Below, piece by piece: positions 19,141-63,737 of a stretch of 64,000 nucleotides of DNA. Origin of the DNA: a virus (Duplodnaviria; Caudoviricetes); IMG/VR virus record IMGVR_UViG_2706795957_000001, positions 29,578-93,577 of that record; one strand, 5' to 3'. Under the pieces are notes generated by a model. The model searched no databases, had not been told where the DNA came from, and saw only the letters and a list, made by a program, of their open reading frames with translations. The translations under genes were made by a program, and so were the position numbers. The first letter of the stretch is position 1. Each line of letters starts with the position of its first letter.

Positions 19141-19143
19141 CTG

Positions 19144-19218
19144 TGCCCTGGGTGGGGCTCGAACCCACGCATCTTCCGATTATGAGTCGGAGGCCTTCAC
19201 CAACTTGGCTACCAGGGC
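19144..19218 (-). tRNA. tRNA with CAU anticodon (Ile2 or Met); CCA not encoded
   Basis: GCCCTGG/CCAGGGC acceptor stem; TCCGA-CTCATAA-TCGGA anticodon arm; GTGGG-TTCGAGC-CCCAC T arm; GA-CTCATAA-TC context resembles Ile2. Confidence 0.93.
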
Positions 19219-21409: not shown

Positions 21410-21462
21410 AAAAAGGGGCAACCCCCGCCTAGTACGTCAGGCGGGGGTTGCTTTCTTCATTT
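21410..21462. terminator. Bidirectional terminator
   Basis: GCAACCCCCGCCT/AGGCGGGGGTTGC with A-run and T-run flanks. Confidence 0.8.
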
Positions 21463-21940: not shown

Positions 21941-22165
21941 GTGTCAGACATCAAGGTGGGCGACATCGTCACCATCGGTTCATGGGGTTACCGCTGGACG
22001 GTGACCGGTTTCAAGCTCTCGCCAGCTTCTGGGGGCCGTAAAGCCCTCCTCGCGCGAGATCAAGAGCACGGCTACCGCCGCGGTGACGTCGGCAAGAGCC
22101 GAGGGACGGCGACCATTCGGACCCGTGTAGCGGTCGATACATTGGTCAAGGAGGAGTCCAAGTGA
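21941..22165 (+). CDS. Hypothetical protein, first gene of rightward operon
   Basis: SD AGGAGG; TATAGT -10 near 21897. Confidence 0.65.
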   Translation: MSDIKVGDIVTIGSWGYRWTVTGFKLSPASGGRKALLARDQEHGYRRGDVGKSRGTATIRTRVAVDTLVKEESK

Positions 22166-23199
22166 CAACCCCCTACGACCTCCTCGAGACCGGCGCCATC
22201 ATCAATGGACGCGCGCAAGTCATCGGCAAGTTCGCGAACGGATCACCCGAGTGGCACGCCGCGCGCCGCGGGCATGTCGGCGGGTCCGAGATCTCCGCGA
22301 TCGTCGGCCTAAGCCCATTCGAGTCACGGTTCTCCCTCTGGCACCGCAAGAAGGGTGAACTCGAGGACGTCGAGGAGACCCCAGCCATGGAGTGGGGCAC
22401 CCGCCTCGAGCCAGTCGTCTACGACAAGTACGCCGAGGGTCTCGAAGAGGGTGAGTTCATCACCACCGGCCACACCTTCCGATGCCTGATCCCGGGGCGC
22501 GGCTGGATCAATGCCAACCCCGACGGCATCGTCTGGGCGCAAACCGAAACCGGCGAGTGGTACATCCGTCGCATCCTCGAGATCAAGACCTCGGCCCGCG
22601 GCGAAGGCTACGGAGAGAACGGCAGCGACGGCATCCCGATCTACTACCGATGCCAAGTGCTGTTCTACATGTACTGCCTCGGCGTCAAGCAGGCCGAGCT
22701 GGCCGCGCTGATCTCCGGTGTCGACTACCGCACCTACAAGGTCAACTACAGCACTGAAGACGTCGAGTTCCTCATGAACGCCGGCGACAAGTTCATGCAC
22801 GACCTGAACAACAACGTCCTGCCCGACATCAGCAAGGATAGTACTACCTACGAGGCTGTCCGGCAGATCAACCCCGAGTTGGACCCGGACCTCGAAGTCG
22901 TCATCCCCACCGCACTGGGGGAGTACTACCGATCGATCGAGGAGGCCTACCGCGAGATCAAGGACCTGCGCTACGGCGTCCACGCAGACATTCTCGACCA
23001 CGTCGGGTCCGCGCGCCTGATCAAGCTCGAGGACGGCGAGGTCCTGGCCCGCCGGCAGATGCCTGGCCGTGGCGACAAGCCATACCTGCGCTACGTGCCG
23101 CCCAAGAAGGCCGAGCAGGTGAGCGTCACGGACGCCTACGAGAAGGAGCAGGACCGGCAGGAACGCCTGGCCGCGATGTACGCGCCCGCATCTGTCTAG
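22162..23199 (+). CDS. YqaJ/RecE-like exonuclease
   Basis: EW...RR..VGGSEI, WGTRLEP, ANPDG, LEIKT, Y..QV..YM. Confidence 0.92.
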   Translation: MTTPYDLLETGAIINGRAQVIGKFANGSPEWHAARRGHVGGSEISAIVGLSPFESRFSLWHRKKGELEDVEETPAMEWGTRLEPVVYDKYAEGLEEGEFITTGHTFRCLIPGRGWINANPDGIVWAQTETGEWYIRRILEIKTSARGEGYGENGSDGIPIYYRCQVLFYMYCLGVKQAELAALISGVDYRTYKVNYSTEDVEFLMNAGDKFMHDLNNNVLPDISKDSTTYEAVRQINPELDPDLEVVIPTALGEYYRSIEEAYREIKDLRYGVHADILDHVGSARLIKLEDGEVLARRQMPGRGDKPYLRYVPPKKAEQVSVTDAYEKEQDRQERLAAMYAPASV

Positions 23200-23206
23200 T
23201 CTCTAG

Positions 23207-23235
23207 TTGACTCCAGCAGACACATGACGTAGGCT
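23207..23235 (+). promoter_or_regulatory. SigA-type promoter TTGACT-N17-TAGGCT
   Basis: Near-consensus hexamers upstream of a 540-nt gene-free leader. Confidence 0.8.
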
Positions 23236-23291
23236 GATGGAGTCAGACAGAGAGCGACAACGAACTGTCTAACCTCTAACTGAACAGAGAC

Positions 23292-23460
23292 TTGTGGTTG
23301 GTGGCGTCAAGCCCACCCCTTCTGGCACAAACCATCCCATTAATCACGGGGCTTACTACGCACGCCAGTTGGGGACGTAAGGACGCCCAGCACCCTTCCC
23401 CGGTGCTTGCGGGACTTCAGAGTTCCTTCAGCTCGACGGCTCCTGCGCCACCAGCCACAA
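23292..23460 (+). ncRNA. Unidentified structured RNA, copy 1
   Basis: 15-bp closing stem; invariant blocks shared with copy 2. Confidence 0.75.
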
Positions 23461-23468
23461 CAACACTT

Positions 23469-23677
23469 GCGACGCCGGCGTCAAGCGCGCCCCTCGGAGT
23501 GCATCCTGTCCCTTTCCAGGATGCAGGGTCTAGCATGCCCACCTCCGCTCCGACCGGGAAGTAAGGACGCCCGACGGTTGAGCCCTGCGGTTCTCCCCAA
23601 CGAGTTGGCGCTCGTTGAACCACCGCTCCCGTCTGCAGACCACAACATCTGCTCGACGGCTCCTGCGCCGGCGTCGC
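23469..23677 (+). ncRNA. Unidentified structured RNA, copy 2
   Basis: 12-bp perfect closing stem of different sequence; same invariant blocks. Confidence 0.75.
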
Positions 23678-23688
23678 CACAACCCCCA

Positions 23689-23717
23689 CATGAGGTCCGA
23701 GTACCGCGAAGCGGATT
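23689..23717 (+). repeat. 29-nt intergenic motif CATGAGGTCCGAGYRCCGCGRAGCGGATT, copy A
   Basis: Also at 26188 and 27452. Confidence 0.85.
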
Positions 23718-23964: not shown

Positions 23965-24473
23965 TCAAGCCGCCATTCCAGCTCGCCACGTTCTTCAACA
24001 CTGGCGAGGATGACCCCTACGGCTGCGTCATGAACGTCGTCGCCTGGCTCGCGGGCGAACCGACAACCGCCGAACCGGCCTGCACCAACTGGCATTTGAC
24101 CAGCCTGGCCCAGACGTTCAATGACAAGCTGCTCATGAAGTTCGCTCCCCACACCCGGGAGTTCGGCACCAACATCGACGGCACGGTACGCATGGTCGGC
24201 GTCGCCACCCCGGAGCAGGCAACCCGGATGCTCGAGGTTGCAGAGATGCTCGTCAACACCTCCGTGGTCAAACGGCAGGACAGCATACCGTGGCTCCGAT
24301 CGGTCACCGCGCTGTATGCACCCAACAAGATGGGCAGCCATGGGCTGGCTACGGCCATCGTCGATGACGCCGACACCTTCGACGAAGCGGTGACCAGCAT
24401 GCTGATCATCCTCGAGGACTTCCACAGCACCTTCGCTGACCAACTCACCCCCAAGGAGCAGGCACTTGTCTGA
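23961..24473 (+). CDS. Hypothetical protein
   Basis: ATGA overlap; GCVMNVVAWLAGEP....PAC motif. Confidence 0.65.
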   Translation: MIKPPFQLATFFNTGEDDPYGCVMNVVAWLAGEPTTAEPACTNWHLTSLAQTFNDKLLMKFAPHTREFGTNIDGTVRMVGVATPEQATRMLEVAEMLVNTSVVKRQDSIPWLRSVTALYAPNKMGSHGLATAIVDDADTFDEAVTSMLIILEDFHSTFADQLTPKEQALV

Positions 24474-26140: not shown

Positions 26141-26187
26141 GACCCGACGGCCTCGCTGGGAAACCGGCGAGGCCGTTCTCACATCCA

Positions 26188-26216
26188 CATGAGGTCCGAG
26201 TGCCGCGAAGCGGATT
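26188..26216 (+). repeat. 29-nt motif, copy B (preceded by a GAAA-capped hairpin at about 26146-26177)
   Basis: CATGAGGTCCGAGTGCCGCGAAGCGGATT. Confidence 0.85.
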
Positions 26217-27277: not shown

Positions 27278-27451
27278 ACCCATCACAAGAGTGTGATTTC
27301 GCCACCCTGTTCGAGGCATGCAACAGCCAAGCCGAGTATGAGGTCACCTACCGATGGTGGGGGCGGAAAACCTTCTGCGCCAGTCACTTCCGTGAGATGA
27401 AGGTCGACGGCGACAAGCATGTACTAAGTGTAACCGCCGCGGCGCCCCAGG

Positions 27452-27480
27452 CATGAGGTCCGAGCGCCGCGGAGCGGATT
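27452..27480 (+). repeat. 29-nt motif, copy C
   Basis: CATGAGGTCCGAGCGCCGCGGAGCGGATT. Confidence 0.85.
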
Positions 27481-27524
27481 GACACACACAACACACCACA
27501 ACACGACAGGGAGGTCGCAAACAC

Positions 27525-55764: not shown

Positions 55765-57478
55765 CCCCGTAGGGTCAGACCCCTTTCGACCAGTAGCGAA
55801 CGCCACCCGCGTAGTACAGCTGGACCACCTTGTCGACATCGGGCAGCGTCTCGTCGAGTGCGTGCATGAAGTACTTGTCCTCGTCGTAGAGCGCAATCGA
55901 CCGGCGCACGTCGAGGTTTGCACGCTGCACCAGGCTGGAGTTGATGAATTGCACCATGAAGTTCTTGTTGATGCTGCGCTGCATCATGTCCAGTTCGGAC
56001 GGATTCAGTTCGATCACCTTGTGGCTCACGGTTTCTCCTTAGTTGAAGTTGGCGGGCAGAACGTTGGGAAGGTTCAGGTTGACGGTATCCACGATCGAAC
56101 GTGCGACGACGTTGTGCCCCTTGGCATCACAGACAGCGATGACCGCAGCGATCTCATTCTGGGTACCGTCGTCGTCCTGCTGGTAGACCTGGGTGATCGC
56201 GTCCTGGATACCGTGGGCATCGACCAGGCAGATCATGCCGTCAGCAAAGATCACGCGGTAGCGCTTGCGAGTCACCACCCGACCCCCTGCCAGAACTCGA
56301 CTGTGCCGTCGACACTGTCCGTGTAGCTGGGCCAGTCGAAGCGTTCACCGGCAACCAGGATCGTGTCCGGGGTGATGTACTGGACGTGACTCATGACCAG
56401 TTCGATGGTCTCGGAGTCCCACTCAGCCTGCTGCCCAGTCACTTTCATGATCCGGGCGATGGCGAGCTGGGCATCACGTGGGTTGATCTGGTCTGCGATG
56501 CGGTTGATGTTTGTGGTCATGTCAGTCCTTAGTTGATGGTTAGTTGGTGGTTGGTGGCCAGGTGGTGTCACCGTTCGGTGTCCACACCAGCTCAGAGTCG
56601 GAGAACTCGAAGGTGTGCGCGACGACTGCCTGATCGGTGAGTCGGGCGATCTGCCGTGCCTCCACGAGGCTGTCGTAGTAGTGGTCACCCTCGTTGTCGT
56701 CGGAGTCGACCAGGACATACTTGACGATCTCAGCCATGTCAGATCCCGTACTTGAAGCGTCGGATCTCACGCCGGCGCAGGGTCTCTCGTCGCTGCTCGA
56801 ACTTGGTTGCACGTGCCATGTCAGTTGTCTCCTTTGTTCAGTTCCAGTCGATTGCCCAGTCGGTGGGCACTTCAAGTCGATTGCCGCAGTTGAGGCACAG
56901 TAGGTACTCACCGTCTCCACTCTCGGAGTAGGTGTCGTCATAGGCAGAGATGGTGTTGGTGTCCGGATCAACCCTGATCGCCCAGGTGCGCTGGTAACCA
57001 CCCTCGGCGAGGACCCAGCTGTGCTTGCACTCCTTGAGCGTGCGAAGTAGGTCGGCCATGTCAGTCGTCCTCCAGCTTGTAGCCGCCGACCCGGTTGCCG
57101 TTCTGGTCGAAGATGGAATGTGTGGTGCGCGGCACGCCGTACTCCTCGATGTAGTCCGCAACCTTGCGCAGGATGCGCGCGATCTCGACACCGGCGGCGT
57201 ACTCGTCGATCTCGCCAGCCCCGCCACCGAACGCGGCGTTGCTGGTGCGGATGGTGAGTTTGAACTGGTCGCTGTTCATTGGATCTCTTCCATGCTCATG
57301 TTGCCCAGGTCGACCAGGTACTTGACACCGCCGGCGTCCACGTCGGTGACCGTGAACACGTTCGCGCCATCGGGGTCACCCACAAAGGTGCCGCGGATAA
57401 CGTTCAGTGCGGCGATTGCGGCATCAATGGGAGAGCCGGTATCTTCGTCGTCGATCTCCCACGTCACGATGTAGTTGC

Positions 57479-58105
57479 TCATGCTGCGGCCTTGCCTTTC
57501 ATGGTGTGTGCGGCAACCCAGGTGATTGCCTGCATCTCGGATGGTTCGATACCGATGGTCTGTGCAGCCTTGCGGTAGGCATTAGACACACCGGCATACA
57601 CGCCCTTGCGGTTGATGTACGCGTAGTCCACGCCAGCGATCCGCATTGCCCAGGAGTCCACGGTCACGTAGTCGGTGTGACCCAGGATGTTGTGCGCGAA
57701 CGAGTGAGTCTTGATGTCCGGCGTCATTTCGCCGAGCGGGTCGTCCTGCAGGTACAGCGCGTTGTATGCCTTGCGCCAGTTCTGATGAGTGAGGCCGGCG
57801 GTACCCGGCACGCGCGGCGCCTGGTCGGCAGGGGCGCCCGGTGTCGCGAGTGCCAGAGCGAACGCCACGTTGTCCTCCCACTTGACCTGCGGAGACAGGT
57901 GGGCGATGGCGACCGCGCATGCCTCTACCTGTCGGTTAGACAGTAGGGCACACTGTTGCGCGACGTCAAGCGCCTCCTTGTACCAGAGCTGGCCGGCAAT
58001 GATGTCAGCGTCGGTAGCGAGGTCGAACACCGAAAGGATGTTCGAGACCATCGCGCGACCACCGACTCCATTCGTCTGCTTGTACAAGGGCTTGCGGGTT
58101 GCCAT
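57479..58105 (-). CDS. Conserved phage protein, possibly DNA-glycosylase-like fold
   Basis: G..WY, A.LSP...W..N, K..SF..NI....VTVD.W, Y..AA...G..P..MQAI.W. Confidence 0.6.
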   Translation of the reverse strand: MATRKPLYKQTNGVGGRAMVSNILSVFDLATDADIIAGQLWYKEALDVAQQCALLSNRQVEACAVAIAHLSPQVKWEDNVAFALALATPGAPADQAPRVPGTAGLTHQNWRKAYNALYLQDDPLGEMTPDIKTHSFAHNILGHTDYVTVDSWAMRIAGVDYAYINRKGVYAGVSNAYRKAAQTIGIEPSEMQAITWVAAHTMKGKAAA

Positions 58106-58160
58106 GGGGGTTGCCTTTCATTGCCTTTGGCTTTCTGTTGGGGGTCTTGCTGTTGATTAG

Positions 58161-58190
58161 ACACTATCAAACGTGTCTAGTGGAAGTCAA
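58161..58190 (-). promoter_or_regulatory. Promoter TTGACT-N18-TAGTGT
   Basis: TTGACTTCCAC family; TAGACA motifs in spacer and at -10. Confidence 0.75.
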
Positions 58191-58194
58191 CCCC

Positions 58195-58647
58195 TCAGGG
58201 GTGGTCGGTCCACTCGGTCGCGTTGGGGAAGTCGTCTTCCAGCGTGGTGAAGTCGCCGCGCTGGGAGTAGGGCTCAGCATCAACCAGGACCCATCGCTCA
58301 CTCGCGCCGTTCTGGAACACGACGCCGACCATGCCCTCAGGCACCGACTCTTGCCAGCTGCCCCATGCCGCACCGACCAGGTGCTTACCCTCGTCCAGCA
58401 ACGCGTTACGTCGATCCTCGCGCACCTGGGACTGTTCGGCACCCTCACGGCACCGATCGCCATGGACGCCGTTCAAGCCACCGCGCAGCTTGTAGCAGGC
58501 CGCGCAGTACGCCGGCGGGGGGCAGTAGTGCAGAGTCCCACCGTTGCGCAATGTCACCTTGTACTTGCACTTGCGACGTCGCACGCCGCCCGACTGTCCG
58601 CAGTTGTCGCAGACCAGTCGACCGCGCATGTCGTAGCAGTAACCCAT
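58195..58647 (-). CDS. Cys-rich hypothetical protein
   Basis: CxxC pairs; coupled to upstream ORF. Confidence 0.65.
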   Translation of the reverse strand: MGYCYDMRGRLVCDNCGQSGGVRRRKCKYKVTLRNGGTLHYCPPPAYCAACYKLRGGLNGVHGDRCREGAEQSQVREDRRNALLDEGKHLVGAAWGSWQESVPEGMVGVVFQNGASERWVLVDAEPYSQRGDFTTLEDDFPNATEWTDHP

Positions 58648-58650
58648 GAC

Positions 58651-59013
58651 TCAGTCCTCCAGCGATTCGGCCAGCGCGATGGTCTCGGTGATGTAGCCGT
58701 TGTCTTCCAGGTCGACCGACCAGTCACACATGACGTCGTAACCGTCGTTGCCGTAGACCAGGACGACGCCGTAGGGATCGTCCGACGTCGCCGGGTAGGC
58801 GAACAGCGTGTCCATGTCGGTATTCATGAGCTGGCTGAACAACGTGCCGGCGTCGGTGGTGCGCGGGTGACGCTCCTCGCCGTCGTGGACCGACAGTTCG
58901 AAGCCGTGTCCGAGCAGTTCGCGAACCAGCGACTTGACGATCCGGCGTTCGATCTTGTACCGGCGCTTGACGTTTGCGCTCATGTAGTCGGGCAGTTCCT
59001 TGTCGGTGTACAT
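58651..59013 (-). CDS. Hypothetical protein
   Basis: SD GGAAGG; LVYGNDGYDVMCD motif. Confidence 0.7.
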   Translation of the reverse strand: MYTDKELPDYMSANVKRRYKIERRIVKSLVRELLGHGFELSVHDGEERHPRTTDAGTLFSQLMNTDMDTLFAYPATSDDPYGVVLVYGNDGYDVMCDWSVDLEDNGYITETIALAESLED

Positions 59014-59423
59014 CAGAATTCCTTCCAGAGATGGGTGATACCGACCACGGCCACCAGGGTGACGACCGTGAACAGTGACGTGATGATGACGAACTGGAGT
59101 GCATGCAACCAGGGATTCATGTCACCACTCCTCATCCCAGGTGCAGTGGCACCGATCCTTGACGTACTCGCAGTACTCGCAGACGTTGTCCATGGGACAT
59201 CCTTTCGATCGAGCTAACCCATGTGTGGTGTGCCCACCTGTGAATTAGACAGATGGGCACACGGACACAGTGGTCAGTCCACGTTGCCGGACTTGGTCCA
59301 GGCGTTGGGCGTGTACTCGGCTTGGCCGCTGCGCGACTCGGCACGCAGGGTGTCGACGTCAACCTGGACCTGCTTGAGCAACAGCGTGTCGTCCATGTTC
59401 ATGGTGTCTCTCCTTTCTCGGGG

Positions 59424-60695
59424 TCAGGCCGCGGCGCGCGCGGCGATGGACTCGCGGGTGGGCACGGTGTTGCGGGCGATCAGGTGCCAGGCCTTGCCGT
59501 TGCCCATCTTTCGGCGGGCGTGGTCGGGATTGCGCCACATATCCCCGGCAATCCAGGGATGGTGGTACATGCTGCCGCGTGCCAGCATGGTGCCGTCGGG
59601 CAGCGTGGCGACCTCGGTTGCCGTGTGGGCCGTGCCGTACAGGGGCGTGCCGTCCGCCTGCTCGACCTCGCGGCGATGCTTGGGCTTGGTGATGCGGGTC
59701 GTGGGCATCATTTGCCACAGCCAGTGCCGACCGTAGTTCTTCCCCTGCCCGCTCAACCAGTAAGACCAGTCGCCGGTAAAGTCCACGGCCTCGACAGCCG
59801 GCACGAAGTCGGTGTCATCCTGCATCTTGAAGTTGTAGTCGTTCTCGACCCAATCGCGAACCGGGCCCGTGCGCTTGGTGATGACACCGCCCATACGCCT
59901 GATTTGGGCCGTCGTGATCTCGGTCGGGATTGCGAACATGTCACCCTGCCGGGTGACCTCACGACCCATGTCCTCAGCGGTGAGGACCGCCTCAGGCTTG
60001 AGCGACTGCATTGCGTCCTCGAACGACGACACCGGACGTGGCAACTCCGACAGGAAGTACAGCGGTCGCGACTCCTGCCGGTCGAACGATGACACGTAGT
60101 ACGCCGTGCGCTCGAACTCGCCCCACGGCTGAGTCTTGGCCGTGAATACGGCATCACCCAGCCAGTGCCGCACCGAATGCCAGCGGTAGGTGCCATCGGC
60201 GTCCAACTTGACCAGCTGGCCACCCGCGACCGATCCGACGAAGTGGTCGGTTGAGTCATTCACCCACACGTAGCGCGATCCGTAGTAGCCGGCGCGGACG
60301 TTGTCCACGATCATGCCGCCGGGTGCGACCGACGACGACTGCGCTGTGTACTCGAAGCCGTCCGCCTTGACGTCGATCGGTTCGATCGTCGCCGCCTTGA
60401 TGTTTGCGTTGCTCAGTGCCTCGAACGGCACGATCACGTAGGTGATCTCGGCGCGGGCCAGTGCGTTTCGCACCTCGGACTGGTGCCGGGTAGTCGACAC
60501 CGAGTAGGTGTCACCGTTGAGCACGGCGTGCCGGATCGTGCCGTCGTCGTTGCGGATGAGGATGCCCAGCGGGAAGTGGCGACCGTAGGAGTAGATGACG
60601 TCACCCTCGGAGAACACGTTGCAGCCGGCCAGGGTGGTGCGTAGACCCTTGGGGTTGCTTATCCACCGTGCGACCATCTTTTCGGTGTTGGACAT
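59424..60695 (-). CDS. Large hypothetical protein (423 aa)
   Basis: IYSY..H...NGD.YS.STT.HQS N-terminal domain; RQGD motif; SD AAAGG. Confidence 0.75.
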   Translation of the reverse strand: MSNTEKMVARWISNPKGLRTTLAGCNVFSEGDVIYSYGRHFPLGILIRNDDGTIRHAVLNGDTYSVSTTRHQSEVRNALARAEITYVIVPFEALSNANIKAATIEPIDVKADGFEYTAQSSSVAPGGMIVDNVRAGYYGSRYVWVNDSTDHFVGSVAGGQLVKLDADGTYRWHSVRHWLGDAVFTAKTQPWGEFERTAYYVSSFDRQESRPLYFLSELPRPVSSFEDAMQSLKPEAVLTAEDMGREVTRQGDMFAIPTEITTAQIRRMGGVITKRTGPVRDWVENDYNFKMQDDTDFVPAVEAVDFTGDWSYWLSGQGKNYGRHWLWQMMPTTRITKPKHRREVEQADGTPLYGTAHTATEVATLPDGTMLARGSMYHHPWIAGDMWRNPDHARRKMGNGKAWHLIARNTVPTRESIAARAAA

Positions 60696-61044
60696 GGGGT
60701 TGCCTTTCAGTGTGTTGAGCTAACCGTTGAGTGATCCGTCCAAGTGTTGGTTAGACACTTGGGCGGACGGACCCACAAGTCAGTTCCGGTATGCCGAGCT
60801 GTCGTTGTAGTAGCGGCCATCCCAGACGCAGGGCAGGCCATTGGTGTTGCCATCCTCGTACTCGCACGCGGGCAGCACTGCCACCATGGATGGTGGCACG
60901 TTGTCCAGGTCAACCGGTGCCGGTGCCTGATGTGCGATGAACAGGGACAGGATGAACGTGGTCACGAGCATGTGAACCTTTCTGATGTCTAGCTGATGAC
61001 TAGACACTAGCAAGCGTGAATAGTGGGTGTCAACCCTAGGTTAC

Positions 61045-61323
61045 TCAGCTGAAGAATGCGACCGACCAGCTGTTGATCGGCTCAGCGAACCAGTCGGACC
61101 CGAGCACCTCACGCGTGATCTGCTGCAGGTCGTCGCGCAGGTTCCAATCGTAGTCCGGGCACTCTTCCCAGCTCACCAGCCACGGGCAGCTGCTTTCCTC
61201 ATGACTGCCCGGGACCACCGTCGGTTGGTGGCCGACAAACCAGCCATCATCGAACTTGGCATCGTACTTGGCCGCGAGGCGTCGTGCGATCTCAGCGACC
61301 TGGTCGCGATTGAGGGTTGCCAT
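61045..61323 (-). CDS. Hypothetical protein
   Basis: Own promoter and SD. Confidence 0.65.
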   Translation of the reverse strand: MATLNRDQVAEIARRLAAKYDAKFDDGWFVGHQPTVVPGSHEESSCPWLVSWEECPDYDWNLRDDLQQITREVLGSDWFAEPINSWSVAFFS

Positions 61324-61371
61324 TCTGTTGCCCTTTCGGTGATTCTAGACTATCGAAGTCTGTAGTGGAAG

Positions 61372-61560
61372 TCAAGCAGCGAGCTTGACCAGCGAGACCC
61401 GCTTGACCAGCGAGACCACGGGACGAGCGTGCCGGCCCGAGCTGACATAGGGCTTTGTTCCGCGGAGTTCACCCCACGTCACGTCATCCCAGAGGTCGTA
61501 GATGTGTGCGAGCGCGTCGGTGGGGACGAGCCGCTTGTTATCGGTGCTGTGACGAGACAT
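61372..61560 (-). CDS. Hypothetical protein
   Basis: Own promoter and SD. Confidence 0.55.
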   Translation of the reverse strand: MSRHSTDNKRLVPTDALAHIYDLWDDVTWGELRGTKPYVSSGRHARPVVSLVKRVSLVKLAA

Positions 61561-61730
61561 GGTTCAGGCCTTTCGGATTCGGGAAGTTTGTTTCTCTCTC
61601 GTTCTGGTTTAAGTCTACCAGAGTAGTGAGTGGAAGTCAAACCGTAGTGGTCTGTGGTTTGCTAGCGTCGCAGTGACCATCTAGAACCTAAGTTTGACTG
61701 TGAGCACTGCCCACAGGTCGCCACCCATAG

Positions 61731-61784
61731 TGCGATGTGAGGAATCGAACCTCATCTACTTAGACAGTAGACACCATGCATCGC
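61731..61784 (-). ncRNA. D-armless tRNA-like element
   Basis: GCGATG/CATCGC stem; TCTAC-TGTCTAA-GTAGA arm; TGAGG-TTCGATT-CCTCA T arm. Confidence 0.6.
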
Positions 61785-61791
61785 TGTTTTG

Positions 61792-62322
61792 TCAAGCGTT
61801 GACAGTTGTGCCCATGGCGATGGTTGCCATGACAACCTCATTCTGTAGAGACTTGGGCACATTGGTACCCATCCAACGCTGCCAGTCGGCAGGGTCACGG
61901 TTGACCAGGCGCCGCGCGTACTCGTCGACCTGCCGCGCACGGTTAGCCGCTGCCCGAGACTTGTCCACAGACTTTCGGTTGACCTGCCGGACCGTGGACT
62001 TCCGAGTTTTGGGCAGACTTGTCCCAGTGCCGGCACGGACCTTTTTCCGACGGACCTCACCGAACTCTTCGACCAGCCCCATGCTGGACAGGTCGCGACG
62101 CCGCACCTCATATCCGCCCGGAGTCTCGACCACCTCACCACGATCGTAAAGGTAACCGCGTTCTTTGTCGGTGAGGTTCGACCACGGTTGCGCACCCTCA
62201 CGGTACTGCTGCCGTGACGTCCGAACCGAGTTGCGCGCCGTGACCCGCGGGTCTGCCGGACCACTCGGACCCCAGAAGTCACCATGGGGAAGTGGTCGGT
62301 TCGCGAACCTATCGTCACTCAT
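61792..62322 (-). CDS. Basic hypothetical protein
   Basis: Own promoter, SD AAAGG. Confidence 0.65.
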   Translation of the reverse strand: MSDDRFANRPLPHGDFWGPSGPADPRVTARNSVRTSRQQYREGAQPWSNLTDKERGYLYDRGEVVETPGGYEVRRRDLSSMGLVEEFGEVRRKKVRAGTGTSLPKTRKSTVRQVNRKSVDKSRAAANRARQVDEYARRLVNRDPADWQRWMGTNVPKSLQNEVVMATIAMGTTVNA

Positions 62323-62482
62323 TGGTCTAAACCTTTCTTTCTGCCGTTGCCCTTAAGTCTACCAGAGTAGTTAGTGGAAGTCAATCCTTGTCGGATTCGA
62401 GTTTGCTAGCGTCGCAGTGACTCTGTAATCCAAGGGTCGACAAACCGAGCCATGCCGGCATGTCACCACAATTCTGGTTGGT

Positions 62483-62527
62483 GGAATTACTCCGATTGAA
62501 CGGTAGGGCCCATGTCCCGGTAATTCC
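62483..62527 (-). ncRNA. Three-way-junction RNA element, copy 1
   Basis: GGAATTAC/GTAATTCC stem enclosing a conserved core. Confidence 0.65.
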
Positions 62528-62562
62528 CGATAACCTATTAAACCATAGGTCGGTGGTGGAAG

Positions 62563-62826
62563 TCAACCGAGTGAGAACAATTTGTCCTCATGAGCTTCAG
62601 CGCACGGTTCACAGTAGTGGAAGTGTTCACCATGCGCCTCGCACACCATGCGACGGCAGTACGCGGCCGCGACCTCGTAGTCGCGAAACGTCGTGATGGT
62701 CTCACCGTCGCGCGACACATGGTGCCGACCGTCGCGCTTGTCGACTGTCAGCGCGCCGTACTCGGACCGGACCCACCGACGACTGTCGTCGCGAACGATG
62801 GTCATATCGTGCTGGTCAACAAACAT
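62563..62826 (-). CDS. Hypothetical protein
   Basis: SD AAAGG within a duplicated leader. Confidence 0.6.
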   Translation of the reverse strand: MFVDQHDMTIVRDDSRRWVRSEYGALTVDKRDGRHHVSRDGETITTFRDYEVAAAYCRRMVCEAHGEHFHYCEPCAEAHEDKLFSLG

Positions 62827-62862
62827 GACAGAACCTTTCACTAGAAACGGATCTAACAGAGT

Positions 62863-62909
62863 GGCAATACTCCGATTGAACGGTAGGGCCCTAATGTCCC
62901 GGTATTGCC
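62863..62909 (-). ncRNA. Three-way-junction RNA element, copy 2
   Basis: GGCAATAC/GTATTGCC stem; part of an ~85-bp leader duplicated near 63147-63236. Confidence 0.65.
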
Positions 62910-62920
62910 TCACGGTTCGA

Positions 62921-63142
62921 CTACGCGGTGTGTTGGGAGTACTTCAGAAAAATGGTGTCGATGCTCGGATCGCTACCGTCGCCGATCTTTACCATGGTCC
63001 CGATCATGGTGTCATTCACGCAACGGATGCATCGGCCATTGGCGATGGTATCGGCATAGGCGATAGCGTCGAGCTCGGTCCGAACCGAGAAACTACGCGC
63101 GGCACCACACTCGGACGTTGTTGTTACCTCATGAATCCACAT
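62921..63142 (-). CDS. Hypothetical protein
   Basis: SD GGAAGG within the duplicated leader. Confidence 0.55.
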   Translation of the reverse strand: MWIHEVTTTSECGAARSFSVRTELDAIAYADTIANGRCIRCVNDTMIGTMVKIGDGSDPSIDTIFLKYSQHTA

Positions 63143-63180
63143 GGCAGAACCTTCCACTAGAAAACGGATCATTACAGAGT

Positions 63181-63227
63181 GGCAATACTCCGATTGAACG
63201 GTAGGGCCCTAATGTCCCGGTATTGCC
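63181..63227 (-). ncRNA. Three-way-junction RNA element, copy 3
   Basis: Identical to copy 2; begins just after the predicted TSS. Confidence 0.65.
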
Positions 63228-63264
63228 TTAACGGTTAAATTGAACCATAGGTGGGGAGTGGAAG

Positions 63265-63513
63265 TCAACCCTTAACCGTACCGGGGACAACGGATGTCAC
63301 GTACTCACCGGAGTGAGTGACAACCGTGACGTATCGACCGTCGTGAGACTCGTCGACGATGATGAGGTCCAGCTCATCATTCAAGTCGACAGACACAATC
63401 GCGTCTCCGTTGTCGTTGGCAGACCACAGAATCCGGTAGGCCATGTTCGCCATGTCATCCGACAGTGCCAGGTCGTCGACTCGGTTGAGCGCTTCGGTGG
63501 TGGTGAGTGTCAT
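63265..63513 (-). CDS. Acidic hypothetical protein, first gene of leftward arm
   Basis: SD AAAGGGA; promoter at 63541-63570. Confidence 0.6.
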   Translation of the reverse strand: MTLTTTEALNRVDDLALSDDMANMAYRILWSANDNGDAIVSVDLNDELDLIIVDESHDGRYVTVVTHSGEYVTSVVPGTVKG

Positions 63514-63737
63514 TTCATCCCTTTCATTGAACCGACTCCCATTAAACCACGTGTCAGGAGTGGAAGTCAATTCCTCCCGCGCGGTGTCGGTGGGGTCGGT
63601 GCGTGTCATGAGAGAGAATCTATCAGGTGGCACCCCTACTTAGGGAAGCCTAATCCGTGACAACATTGGTTGTCACCAGGCCGGCCTAGTGTCACAGTGA
63701 CGTTTCTGCCCGTACCTCGGACCTAGGACGTCGGCGC

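Follow-up and report, generated by a model that had tools for sequence, protein, structure and literature searches.

Both RNA units of the window (the whole stretch of 64,000 nucleotides that was analysed, which forms the right part of a virus record of 93,577 bases) are members of an uncatalogued RNA family, of which about 80 distinct copies were traced in the Actinomycetota. The family is common in phages, and in parasites of phages, of soil actinobacteria: it is carried by Gordonia phages of the clusters CQ and DL and by many small satellite-like elements. That the window holds a new structured RNA is strongly supported by covariation, by a strand-specific kink-turn and by the absence of both a reading frame and an Rfam match. 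It is a new RNA family, of a functional kind that is probably known. Our best guess, to which we give a probability of roughly 45%, is that the RNA acts in trans by blocking ribosome-binding sites and translation initiation.

The closest public record is that of BrutonGaster, a Gordonia phage of the genus Oneupvirus, with 86% identity across the locus. The genes are ordered as integrase, repressor, recE, a gap, two small ORFs, recT and thymidylate synthase. The features around the RNA are:

22162-23199, + strand: RecE-like exonuclease gene recE (phrog_434, E 2e-80), whose stop codon ends 8 nt before the -35 box
23207-23235, + strand: putative SigA-type promoter, with -35 TTGACT (23207-23212), a 17-nt spacer and -10 TAGGCT (23230-23235)
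23686-23717, + strand: repeated 32-nt leader element of two hairpins, outside the RNA unit, found by blastn of the phage's own genome
23778-23966, + strand: first downstream ORF, about 62 amino acids, no family, with a GAGGAG ribosome-binding site and an orthologue annotated in BrutonGaster and Smoothie
ending at 24473: second intervening ORF (phrog_13065), between recE and recT

The initial annotation had put the RNA between the normally adjacent recE and recT; the RNA does lie between them, but so do the two ORFs. The promoter was found exactly where it had been read, and its -35 box and a TANNNT -10 are retained in all CQ homologues. It is overlapped by an 8-bp inverted repeat (23208-23215 / 23238-23245) with a compensatory change in the CQ homologues, seen in the CQ1 phages; candidate readings of this repeat are an operator or a terminator hairpin for the recE transcript. 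The promoter is flanked by TGTCTA(A/G) boxes at 23193 and 23266. Boxes of this type lie beside many phage promoter -10 regions (23193, 23266, 27272, 32846, 36063, 44119, 55737, 57942, 58163, 59251, 60757, 61006, 61766 and elsewhere) and are probably repressor or regulator sites. The 32-nt element is conserved in the CQ1 phages and has further copies at about 26185-26216 and 27445-27482 in the early/replication region (three in total), and may be a leader or antitermination site that is separate from the RNA unit. Further upstream, a tRNA-Met gene (19143-19218, - strand) lies just ahead of the integrase gene, and the 3' end of the repressor gene carries a bidirectional terminator-like hairpin (21415-21454).

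The two units and their parts, all on the + strand, are:

23292-23460: RNA unit 1 (53.8 bits, E 5e-9 with a covariance model built without unit 1)
23292-23306 / 23446-23460: P1 of unit 1
23307-23310: junction UCAA of unit 1
23311-23378: P2 of unit 1 (2-bp P2a, NCR/AN internal loop, CC/GG, branched arm)
23379: single A of unit 1
23380-23387 / 23438-23444: P3 of unit 1
23389-23407: P4 of unit 1
from 23409: P5 of unit 1, with a pyrimidine-rich loop; UCCUU is present in P5
23433-23437: UCGAC strand of unit 1
23445: single G of unit 1
23461-23468: A/C-rich linker between the units, unpaired in the folds and near-identical in BrutonGaster and the homologous locus L006; a likely processing site
23469-23677: RNA unit 2, placed by block parsing as it has long insertions
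23469-23480 / 23666-23677: P1 of unit 2
23481-23484: junction UCAA of unit 2
23485-23562: P2 of unit 2
23500-23525: hairpin of 9 bp within the unit 2 P2 arm; its loop, UCCCUUUC at 23509-23516, contains the 16S-tail word CCUUUC
23563: single A of unit 2
23564-23571 / 23658-23664: P3 of unit 2, followed by the P4/P5 branch
23665: single G of unit 2

The units share three sequence blocks, each with exactly two occurrences and in the same order (23303/23477, 23377/23561 and 23431/23651), as had been described; the long blocks are absent from the rest of the window. They had been called invariant, which is true of the two window units, where they are exact, but not of the wider family, in which they vary. 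The closing and inner stems pair as claimed, and the folds are more stable than any of 200 shuffles (z -4.9 for unit 1 and -4.4 for unit 2). In unit 2, the hairpin loop next to the 23500-23525 hairpin holds a CAU (23534-23536), and CACCUCC is unpaired at 23540-23546. In L006 (about 330-360, - strand) a short direct duplication within the P4 arm of unit 2 shows how arms grow.

Against Rfam 15 the window gave no family at the gathering threshold or at E<10, in agreement with the initial annotation, which had recognised no known RNA family. Neither did 17 homologous loci and a non-coding gap of phage Daredevil yield a family matching the RNA; the only matches were tRNAs adjoining some of the copies. 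No description of the family was found in the literature searched, with most subscription journals and large motif supplements outside reach. Homologues were sought in viral contigs, genomes and metagenomes with relaxed two-block patterns. Since these patterns held only the 5' and middle blocks, the 3' block, P1, kink-turn and loop of the matches are independent evidence. In all examined CQ phages the element follows the recE stop codon behind the same promoter, with two units in BrutonGaster and an IMG/VR contig and one unit in Smoothie-type phages. Among 47 genome matches, every one that completes the fold is from the Actinomycetota (Actinoplanes, Actinacidiphila, Geodermatophilus, a Pseudonocardiaceae, and Aeromicrobium with four copies). 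A covariance model derived from 16 copies outside CQ found the RNA in at least 19 of 151 Geodermatophilus-family genomes, at least 5 of 151 of the Mycobacterium family, at least 3 of 151 of the Actinacidiphila family and at least 3 of 151 of the phylum; these are lower bounds, as 23 candidates were scored per genome, and include the centre genome where it has a copy. The model also found a divergent form in the cluster DL phages Daredevil, Mollymur and Bantam. Tandem copies are not confined to CQ. A loose pattern run across 401 Mycobacterium genomes gave mostly coding noise, blastn with the satellite copies found no phage or plasmid records, and a 33-bp match in Mollymur (H23) is not a unit. 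The statistics below refer to 59 non-redundant units, three of which come from unpublished genomes (L125 and L254 from G009, L271 from G292); no conclusion rests solely on these.

The core is a nested three-way junction, P1-UCAA-P2-A-P3-G, fixed by covariation. P1 ends in GCG and is followed by UCAA and by P2, which consists of two pairs, an NCR/AN internal loop and CC/GG and leads into a variable arm; then come one A, P3 (WGG ... CCW) and one G, and the 3' strand of P1 closes the unit. P3 opens with A-U in 46 units and with U-A in 13, and the P2a pairs vary as GC/GU, AC/GC, CG/CG and CC/GG. Six tested core pairs have a mutual information of 0.76-1.06 in the 59 units, a value reached in none of 2000 permutations; the permutations ignore relatedness, but compensatory changes nonetheless occur in several lineages. 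In an independent MAFFT alignment 81% of the cells pair, versus 35-42% for slid partners.

This nested core replaces the crossed X-Y-X'-Y' pairing that had been proposed. One of its two helices, AGGA-c-GCC/GGCUCCU, is real but nested, being P3. The other, UCAAGC/GCUCGA, is unsupported: its columns have a mutual information of 0.05-0.10, not above permutations, and the complement is present in 9 of 10 CQ units but in only 5 of 48 others. The GC of UCAAGC pairs in P2a and that of GCUCGA in P5. The pseudoknot was thus rejected, and with it the suggested likeness to the P3/P7 core of group I introns, as no crossed pairing of this type is kept by covariation; all that is shared is a helix with an occasional bulged C, and the family has no pseudoknot, intron match or exon context. 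A self-cleaving or other ribozyme that processes its transcript would suit a compact and highly conserved junction, tandem copies and a location just after stop codons. We consider it very improbable, as no Rfam ribozyme matched at E<10 or E<1, the pseudoknot is absent and the conserved variable-arm loops point outward. Likenesses at the level of single words (5S rRNA, the L11 site, RNase P, twister-sister, the SAH riboswitch) were dropped, since the pairing differs and Rfam lends no support.

A DNA structure or a small protein gene has been largely refuted as an explanation. Arm lengths are evenly spread over the three frames, so that no protein is conserved; the conserved translated ORF which the initial annotation had named as a refutation was thereby rejected. 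ORFs have been annotated over the element (BrutonGaster gp72 on the minus strand, Bachita gp90, ClubL gp88), but these disagree in strand. The count of G-U versus A-C in P1, used as a strand test, is only 13 to 9 and uninformative, but the kink-turn is found on one strand only.

In most non-CQ copies P3 continues via GA, a stem-loop, a 3-nt bulge and GA. Such a k-turn is present in 28 of 49 non-CQ units, versus 2.8 with shuffled ends and none on the reverse strand; the bulge is 3 nt long in 24 of the 28. The sequences display what defines a k-turn: the 3-nt bulge, tandem G.A/A.G, C and NC stems and a non-Watson-Crick 3b.3n pair, here mostly C.C or U.G. The rule for metal-ion, protein-free folding of k-turns, "3n=G or 3b=C, not both" (PMC4382518), is obeyed by 25 of the 28. 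Among 18 further copies, nine have the k-turn, and eight of these nine obey the rule. The window units keep half of the k-turn: UCGAC of block 3 is the bulged strand, and the extra helix P4 replaces the other strand. They do not conform to the definition of a k-junction (PMC10573300), as GA is found only in unit-2 types, where it is able to pair normally. With the k-turn and k-junction RNAs (the SAM-I and TPP riboswitches and the DUF3268 motif; PMC4382518, PMC10573300) the family has the module alone in common, that is the standard 3-nt bulge with tandem G.A, of the ion-folding class described in PMC4382518, and the CQ branch has the bulged strand and lacks the second GA. The family thereby adds a natural k-turn family with clear 3b.3n covariation.

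The arms end in loops that carry two recurrent words. The 3' tail of 16S rRNA, read from five actinobacterial genomes, is GAUCACCUCCUUUCU, and the end loop of the P3 arm matches this tail (CCUUUC) beyond composition; against the reversed tail there was no such excess. After composition control CCUUU was counted 22 times versus 4.6 expected, UCCUU 19 versus 4.6 and CUUUC 17 versus 4.6, whereas the core anti-Shine-Dalgarno word CCUCC is not enriched (7 versus 6.9). At the tip of P2, CAU was found 21 times versus 6.0. Both results recurred in 18 copies found later, two of which were imperfectly parsed (tail match 7 versus 2.1, p 0.0015; CAU 6 versus 1.9, p 0.008), and held with one unit per 70%-identity cluster (13.7 versus 5.2 and 15.3 versus 4.4); they weaken at 62%, and at 58% the clusters chain. 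Grouping by shared 9-mers, as another control for relatedness, put 35 units into a single chained cluster and was set aside. CAU and the tail match do not co-occur beyond chance (10 versus 9.6). In unit 2 of the OneUp type the tail word has been relocated to another arm. An internal switch between the loop and the AAGG of the junction was rejected, since the loop does not track the change between AAGG and AUGG.

Read 5' to 3', CAU followed by CCUUUC is complementary, in antiparallel order, to a start codon and to a Shine-Dalgarno sequence of the GAAAGG type. As in the RNAs with anti-Shine-Dalgarno loops, an unpaired loop complementary to the Shine-Dalgarno sequence is present, although the word is CCUUUC rather than CCUCC. 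Each unit would then be a stand-alone non-coding RNA, closed by P1 and trimmed from a longer transcript, which would start at its own promoter here and come from the 3' ends of capsid operons or from tRNA clusters elsewhere. Its conserved three-way junction would hold two arms: the P3 arm, bent by the k-turn (elaborated into a second junction in the CQ and DL phages) and ending in the loop that copies the 16S tail, and the P2 arm, often ending in CAU. The loops may pair in trans with GAAAGG-type Shine-Dalgarno sequences and AUG, competing with the 30S subunit. In the satellites the targets might be mRNAs of the helper phage or the host. In this phage they would be leftward genes of the right arm, presumably early genes to be switched off:

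57479-63513, - strand: candidate targets, leftward right-arm genes whose GAAAGG ribosome-binding sites are the complement of the loop word

These genes belong to a run of short leftward genes (57000-63600, - strand), most of which have a consensus promoter of their own and a GAAAGG ribosome-binding site; the ones that were scanned fall in PHROGs of unknown function or have no family. With start sites called within this analysis, GAAAGG sites precede 9 of 24 right-arm genes of this phage versus 3 of 99 others (p 1.5e-5). In four annotated CQ phages the counts are 4/22, 6/21, 8/21 and 9/17, versus 0/33 in Yvonnetastic, where no copy of the RNA was found, a contrast that rests on one genome. The loop of unit 2 can pair over 8-9 bp with the GAAAGG-type site of the gene starting at 63513. 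The right-arm sites may, however, merely reflect strong translation, and it is odd for a general blocker of Shine-Dalgarno sequences that CCUCC is not enriched. For loop pairing without a chaperone there is a precedent in the actinobacteria, the 6C RNA (PMC6486639).

The main rival to a blocker of ribosome-binding sites is a counter-defence decoy, in which the loop mimics the free 3' end of 16S rRNA and draws off the host's endoribonuclease toxins for that site, in the way that phage tRNAs may offset anticodon nucleases. In this form, specific to the 16S tail, the decoy idea of the initial annotation survives, though we regard it as rather unlikely. What is enriched is the very end of the tail, with UCCUU among the words, and not the core that pairs with the Shine-Dalgarno sequence. 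MazF-mt1 of M. tuberculosis cuts the tail at U^CCUU, and MazF-mt11, RelE1 and RelS cut nearby (10.64898/2026.10.23.761202; PMC12274833). The DL copies in tRNA clusters, one of them with a 9-nt tail match, and the lack of a match between loops and their own downstream genes would also suit a decoy. On the other hand, UCCUU is present in only 22 of the 59 units, the base 5' of CCUUUC varies, and the contexts of CAU are unlike an initiator anticodon loop. Moreover, although 796 transcripts carry UCCUU, MazF-mt1 cuts at the 30S-bound site alone, so that a free loop may be a poor decoy, and the same study does not show these toxins to be anti-phage (10.64898/2026.10.23.761202). A possible, if doubtful, variant draws on both ideas and takes the RNA as a mimic of the translation initiation complex. 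Here the k-turn-bent arm would show the 16S 3' tail and the second arm the initiator-anticodon triplet; the scaffold would clamp Shine-Dalgarno sequence and start codon, or bait toxins directed at the 16S tail, and phages and satellites would retune it by swapping arms.

The contexts of the copies bear on the choice between action in trans and in cis. Wherever the flanking genes could be called, the unit is co-oriented with them, and a non-CQ unit often starts no more than about 20 nt from the stop codon of a gene in the same orientation. Some lie after a major capsid or head-tail connector gene and before a strong hairpin at the end of the element; others have primase or small genes on one side and terminase or tape-measure genes on the other. 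Three elements, read from end to end, span 8-14 kb, with an integrase or primase and a partial head or tail set, and are satellite-like (compare the EPIPs; PMC12822802). In the DL phages only a few bases separate the unit from tRNA genes, the processing of which might free its ends. Processing from a precursor by RNase P is suggested by the closed P1 and the tRNA neighbours, the only features that point to it. The contexts have no downstream gene in common, which argues for action in trans, and the positions after stop codons, before hairpins and between tRNAs make excision of the RNA and its action in trans probable.

Control in cis of the gene or operon that follows, at the level of translation or termination, by an attenuator or a put-like antiterminator, would account for this co-orientation and for the position of the window units in a promoter leader. 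In addition, 14 units have a Shine-Dalgarno sequence and start codon 20-55 nt downstream, with a tail match in 10 of the 14, versus 8 of the 22 units that are followed by a strong hairpin and no gene. The latter 22 (of 59) argue against such control, as do the DL copies between tRNAs and the interchangeability of one or two copies among CQ phages. Nor did loops pair better with their own downstream Shine-Dalgarno and start regions than with permuted ones (p 0.46 and 0.42), so that specific targeting of the next gene was not found, and we consider control in cis improbable. The processive antitermination that had been suggested for the operon downstream is a poor fit for the same family: put-type elements lie upstream of terminators and long operons, whereas many of the present copies end an operon, at a terminator-like hairpin (the 22 of 59) or the end of the element, or sit between tRNAs.

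The blocker of translation initiation leaves one feature aside. A 6-nt tail match is missing from over half of the units, and in the minimal copy L194 the P3 arm is absent, so that pairing alone does not explain the strongly conserved junction. An alternative is a protein-binding or structural scaffold. Its junction and internal loop would be the site for a protein of host or phage (a ribosomal, packaging or RNA-processing one), the pyrimidine loop would be brought back by the k-turn to make a tertiary contact, and its match to the tail would be secondary. The junction is far more conserved than any loop, the minimal copies L194 and L052 do without the arm, and most satellite copies adjoin capsid, connector, terminase or tape-measure genes. 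Still, a scaffold seems unlikely to us, since the CQ phages carry the RNA in the early/replication region, far from the head genes, no neighbouring protein family is common to the copies, and the loop shows no covariation with the internal AAGG/AUGG, yet agrees with a sequence outside the RNA and can move from one arm to another.

Several loci that carry the RNA have further features of interest. Long non-coding gaps between HNH and terminase genes in Daredevil (L328:3350-4540), Mollymur (L448:770-1580) and Bantam (L449:800-1350) contain unannotated tRNA-like RNAs with odd anticodon arms and further conserved structured blocks. Daredevil also has a HigBA toxin-antitoxin pair (L030:3586-4189) and, further along, a cluster of RNA ligase, polynucleotide kinase and nucleotidyltransferase. 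An Aeromicrobium MAG holds four RNA copies (L095, L101, L115 and L133), three of them without clear phage genes nearby; these resemble what is left of satellite ends. At L450, L451, L452, L100, L113 and L137 lie small integrated elements whose gene sets are capsid-only or terminase plus tape-measure, in genomes of the Geodermatophilus family, the Mycobacterium family and other actinobacteria. They are apparently undescribed satellites, with the RNA as a marker.

In the sources searched, no RNA family is catalogued for actinobacterial phage satellites. The present one is a marker of many small integrated elements and of two clusters of Gordonia phages in culture, which allows immediate deletion and assay. 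Should it silence ribosome-binding sites, it would be a phage and satellite RNA switch for early genes or for the control of the helper, in hosts that are not known to have Hfq. If it baits nucleases of the 16S tail, it would be an RNA counter-defence against rRNA-targeting toxins and a hint at the role of the mycobacterial tail-cutting toxins.

Among known systems, the C4 antisense RNA of the phages P1 and P7, with which the CI RNA of satellite P4 is reportedly grouped, offers one parallel. It is a three-helix phage RNA cut from an operon transcript, and it uses two separate loops, one of them partly covering a ribosome-binding site (PMC5320573), as proposed here. The present family gave no match to the C4 sequence-structure model of Rfam, has another core and a k-turn arm, showed no loop-complementary target sites next to the RNA in its downstream Shine-Dalgarno and start regions, and belongs to the Actinomycetota, whereas C4 is found in Proteobacteria. 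A second parallel concerns pyrimidine-rich loops, for which we take the Cuckoo anti-Shine-Dalgarno RNAs to be comparable. The 6C sRNA has such loops, able to pair with mRNA without a chaperone, and shares the actinobacterial host group (PMC6486639). Both 6C and Cuckoo are simple hairpin arrays with loops of C-runs or CCUCC; the present RNA, on phages and satellites, instead has a conserved three-way junction with a k-turn arm, no Rfam match, and a loop that copies the last letters of 16S rRNA. For the satellite copies, SviR of the Vibrio satellite PLE, a trans-acting RNA that lowers translation of helper-phage mRNA (10.1101/2022.04.08.487710), may serve as a model; host and element are unrelated and the two are likened by function alone. 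In function, then, the family would appear most like the C4/CI antisense RNAs, the 6C-type loop RNAs or SviR.
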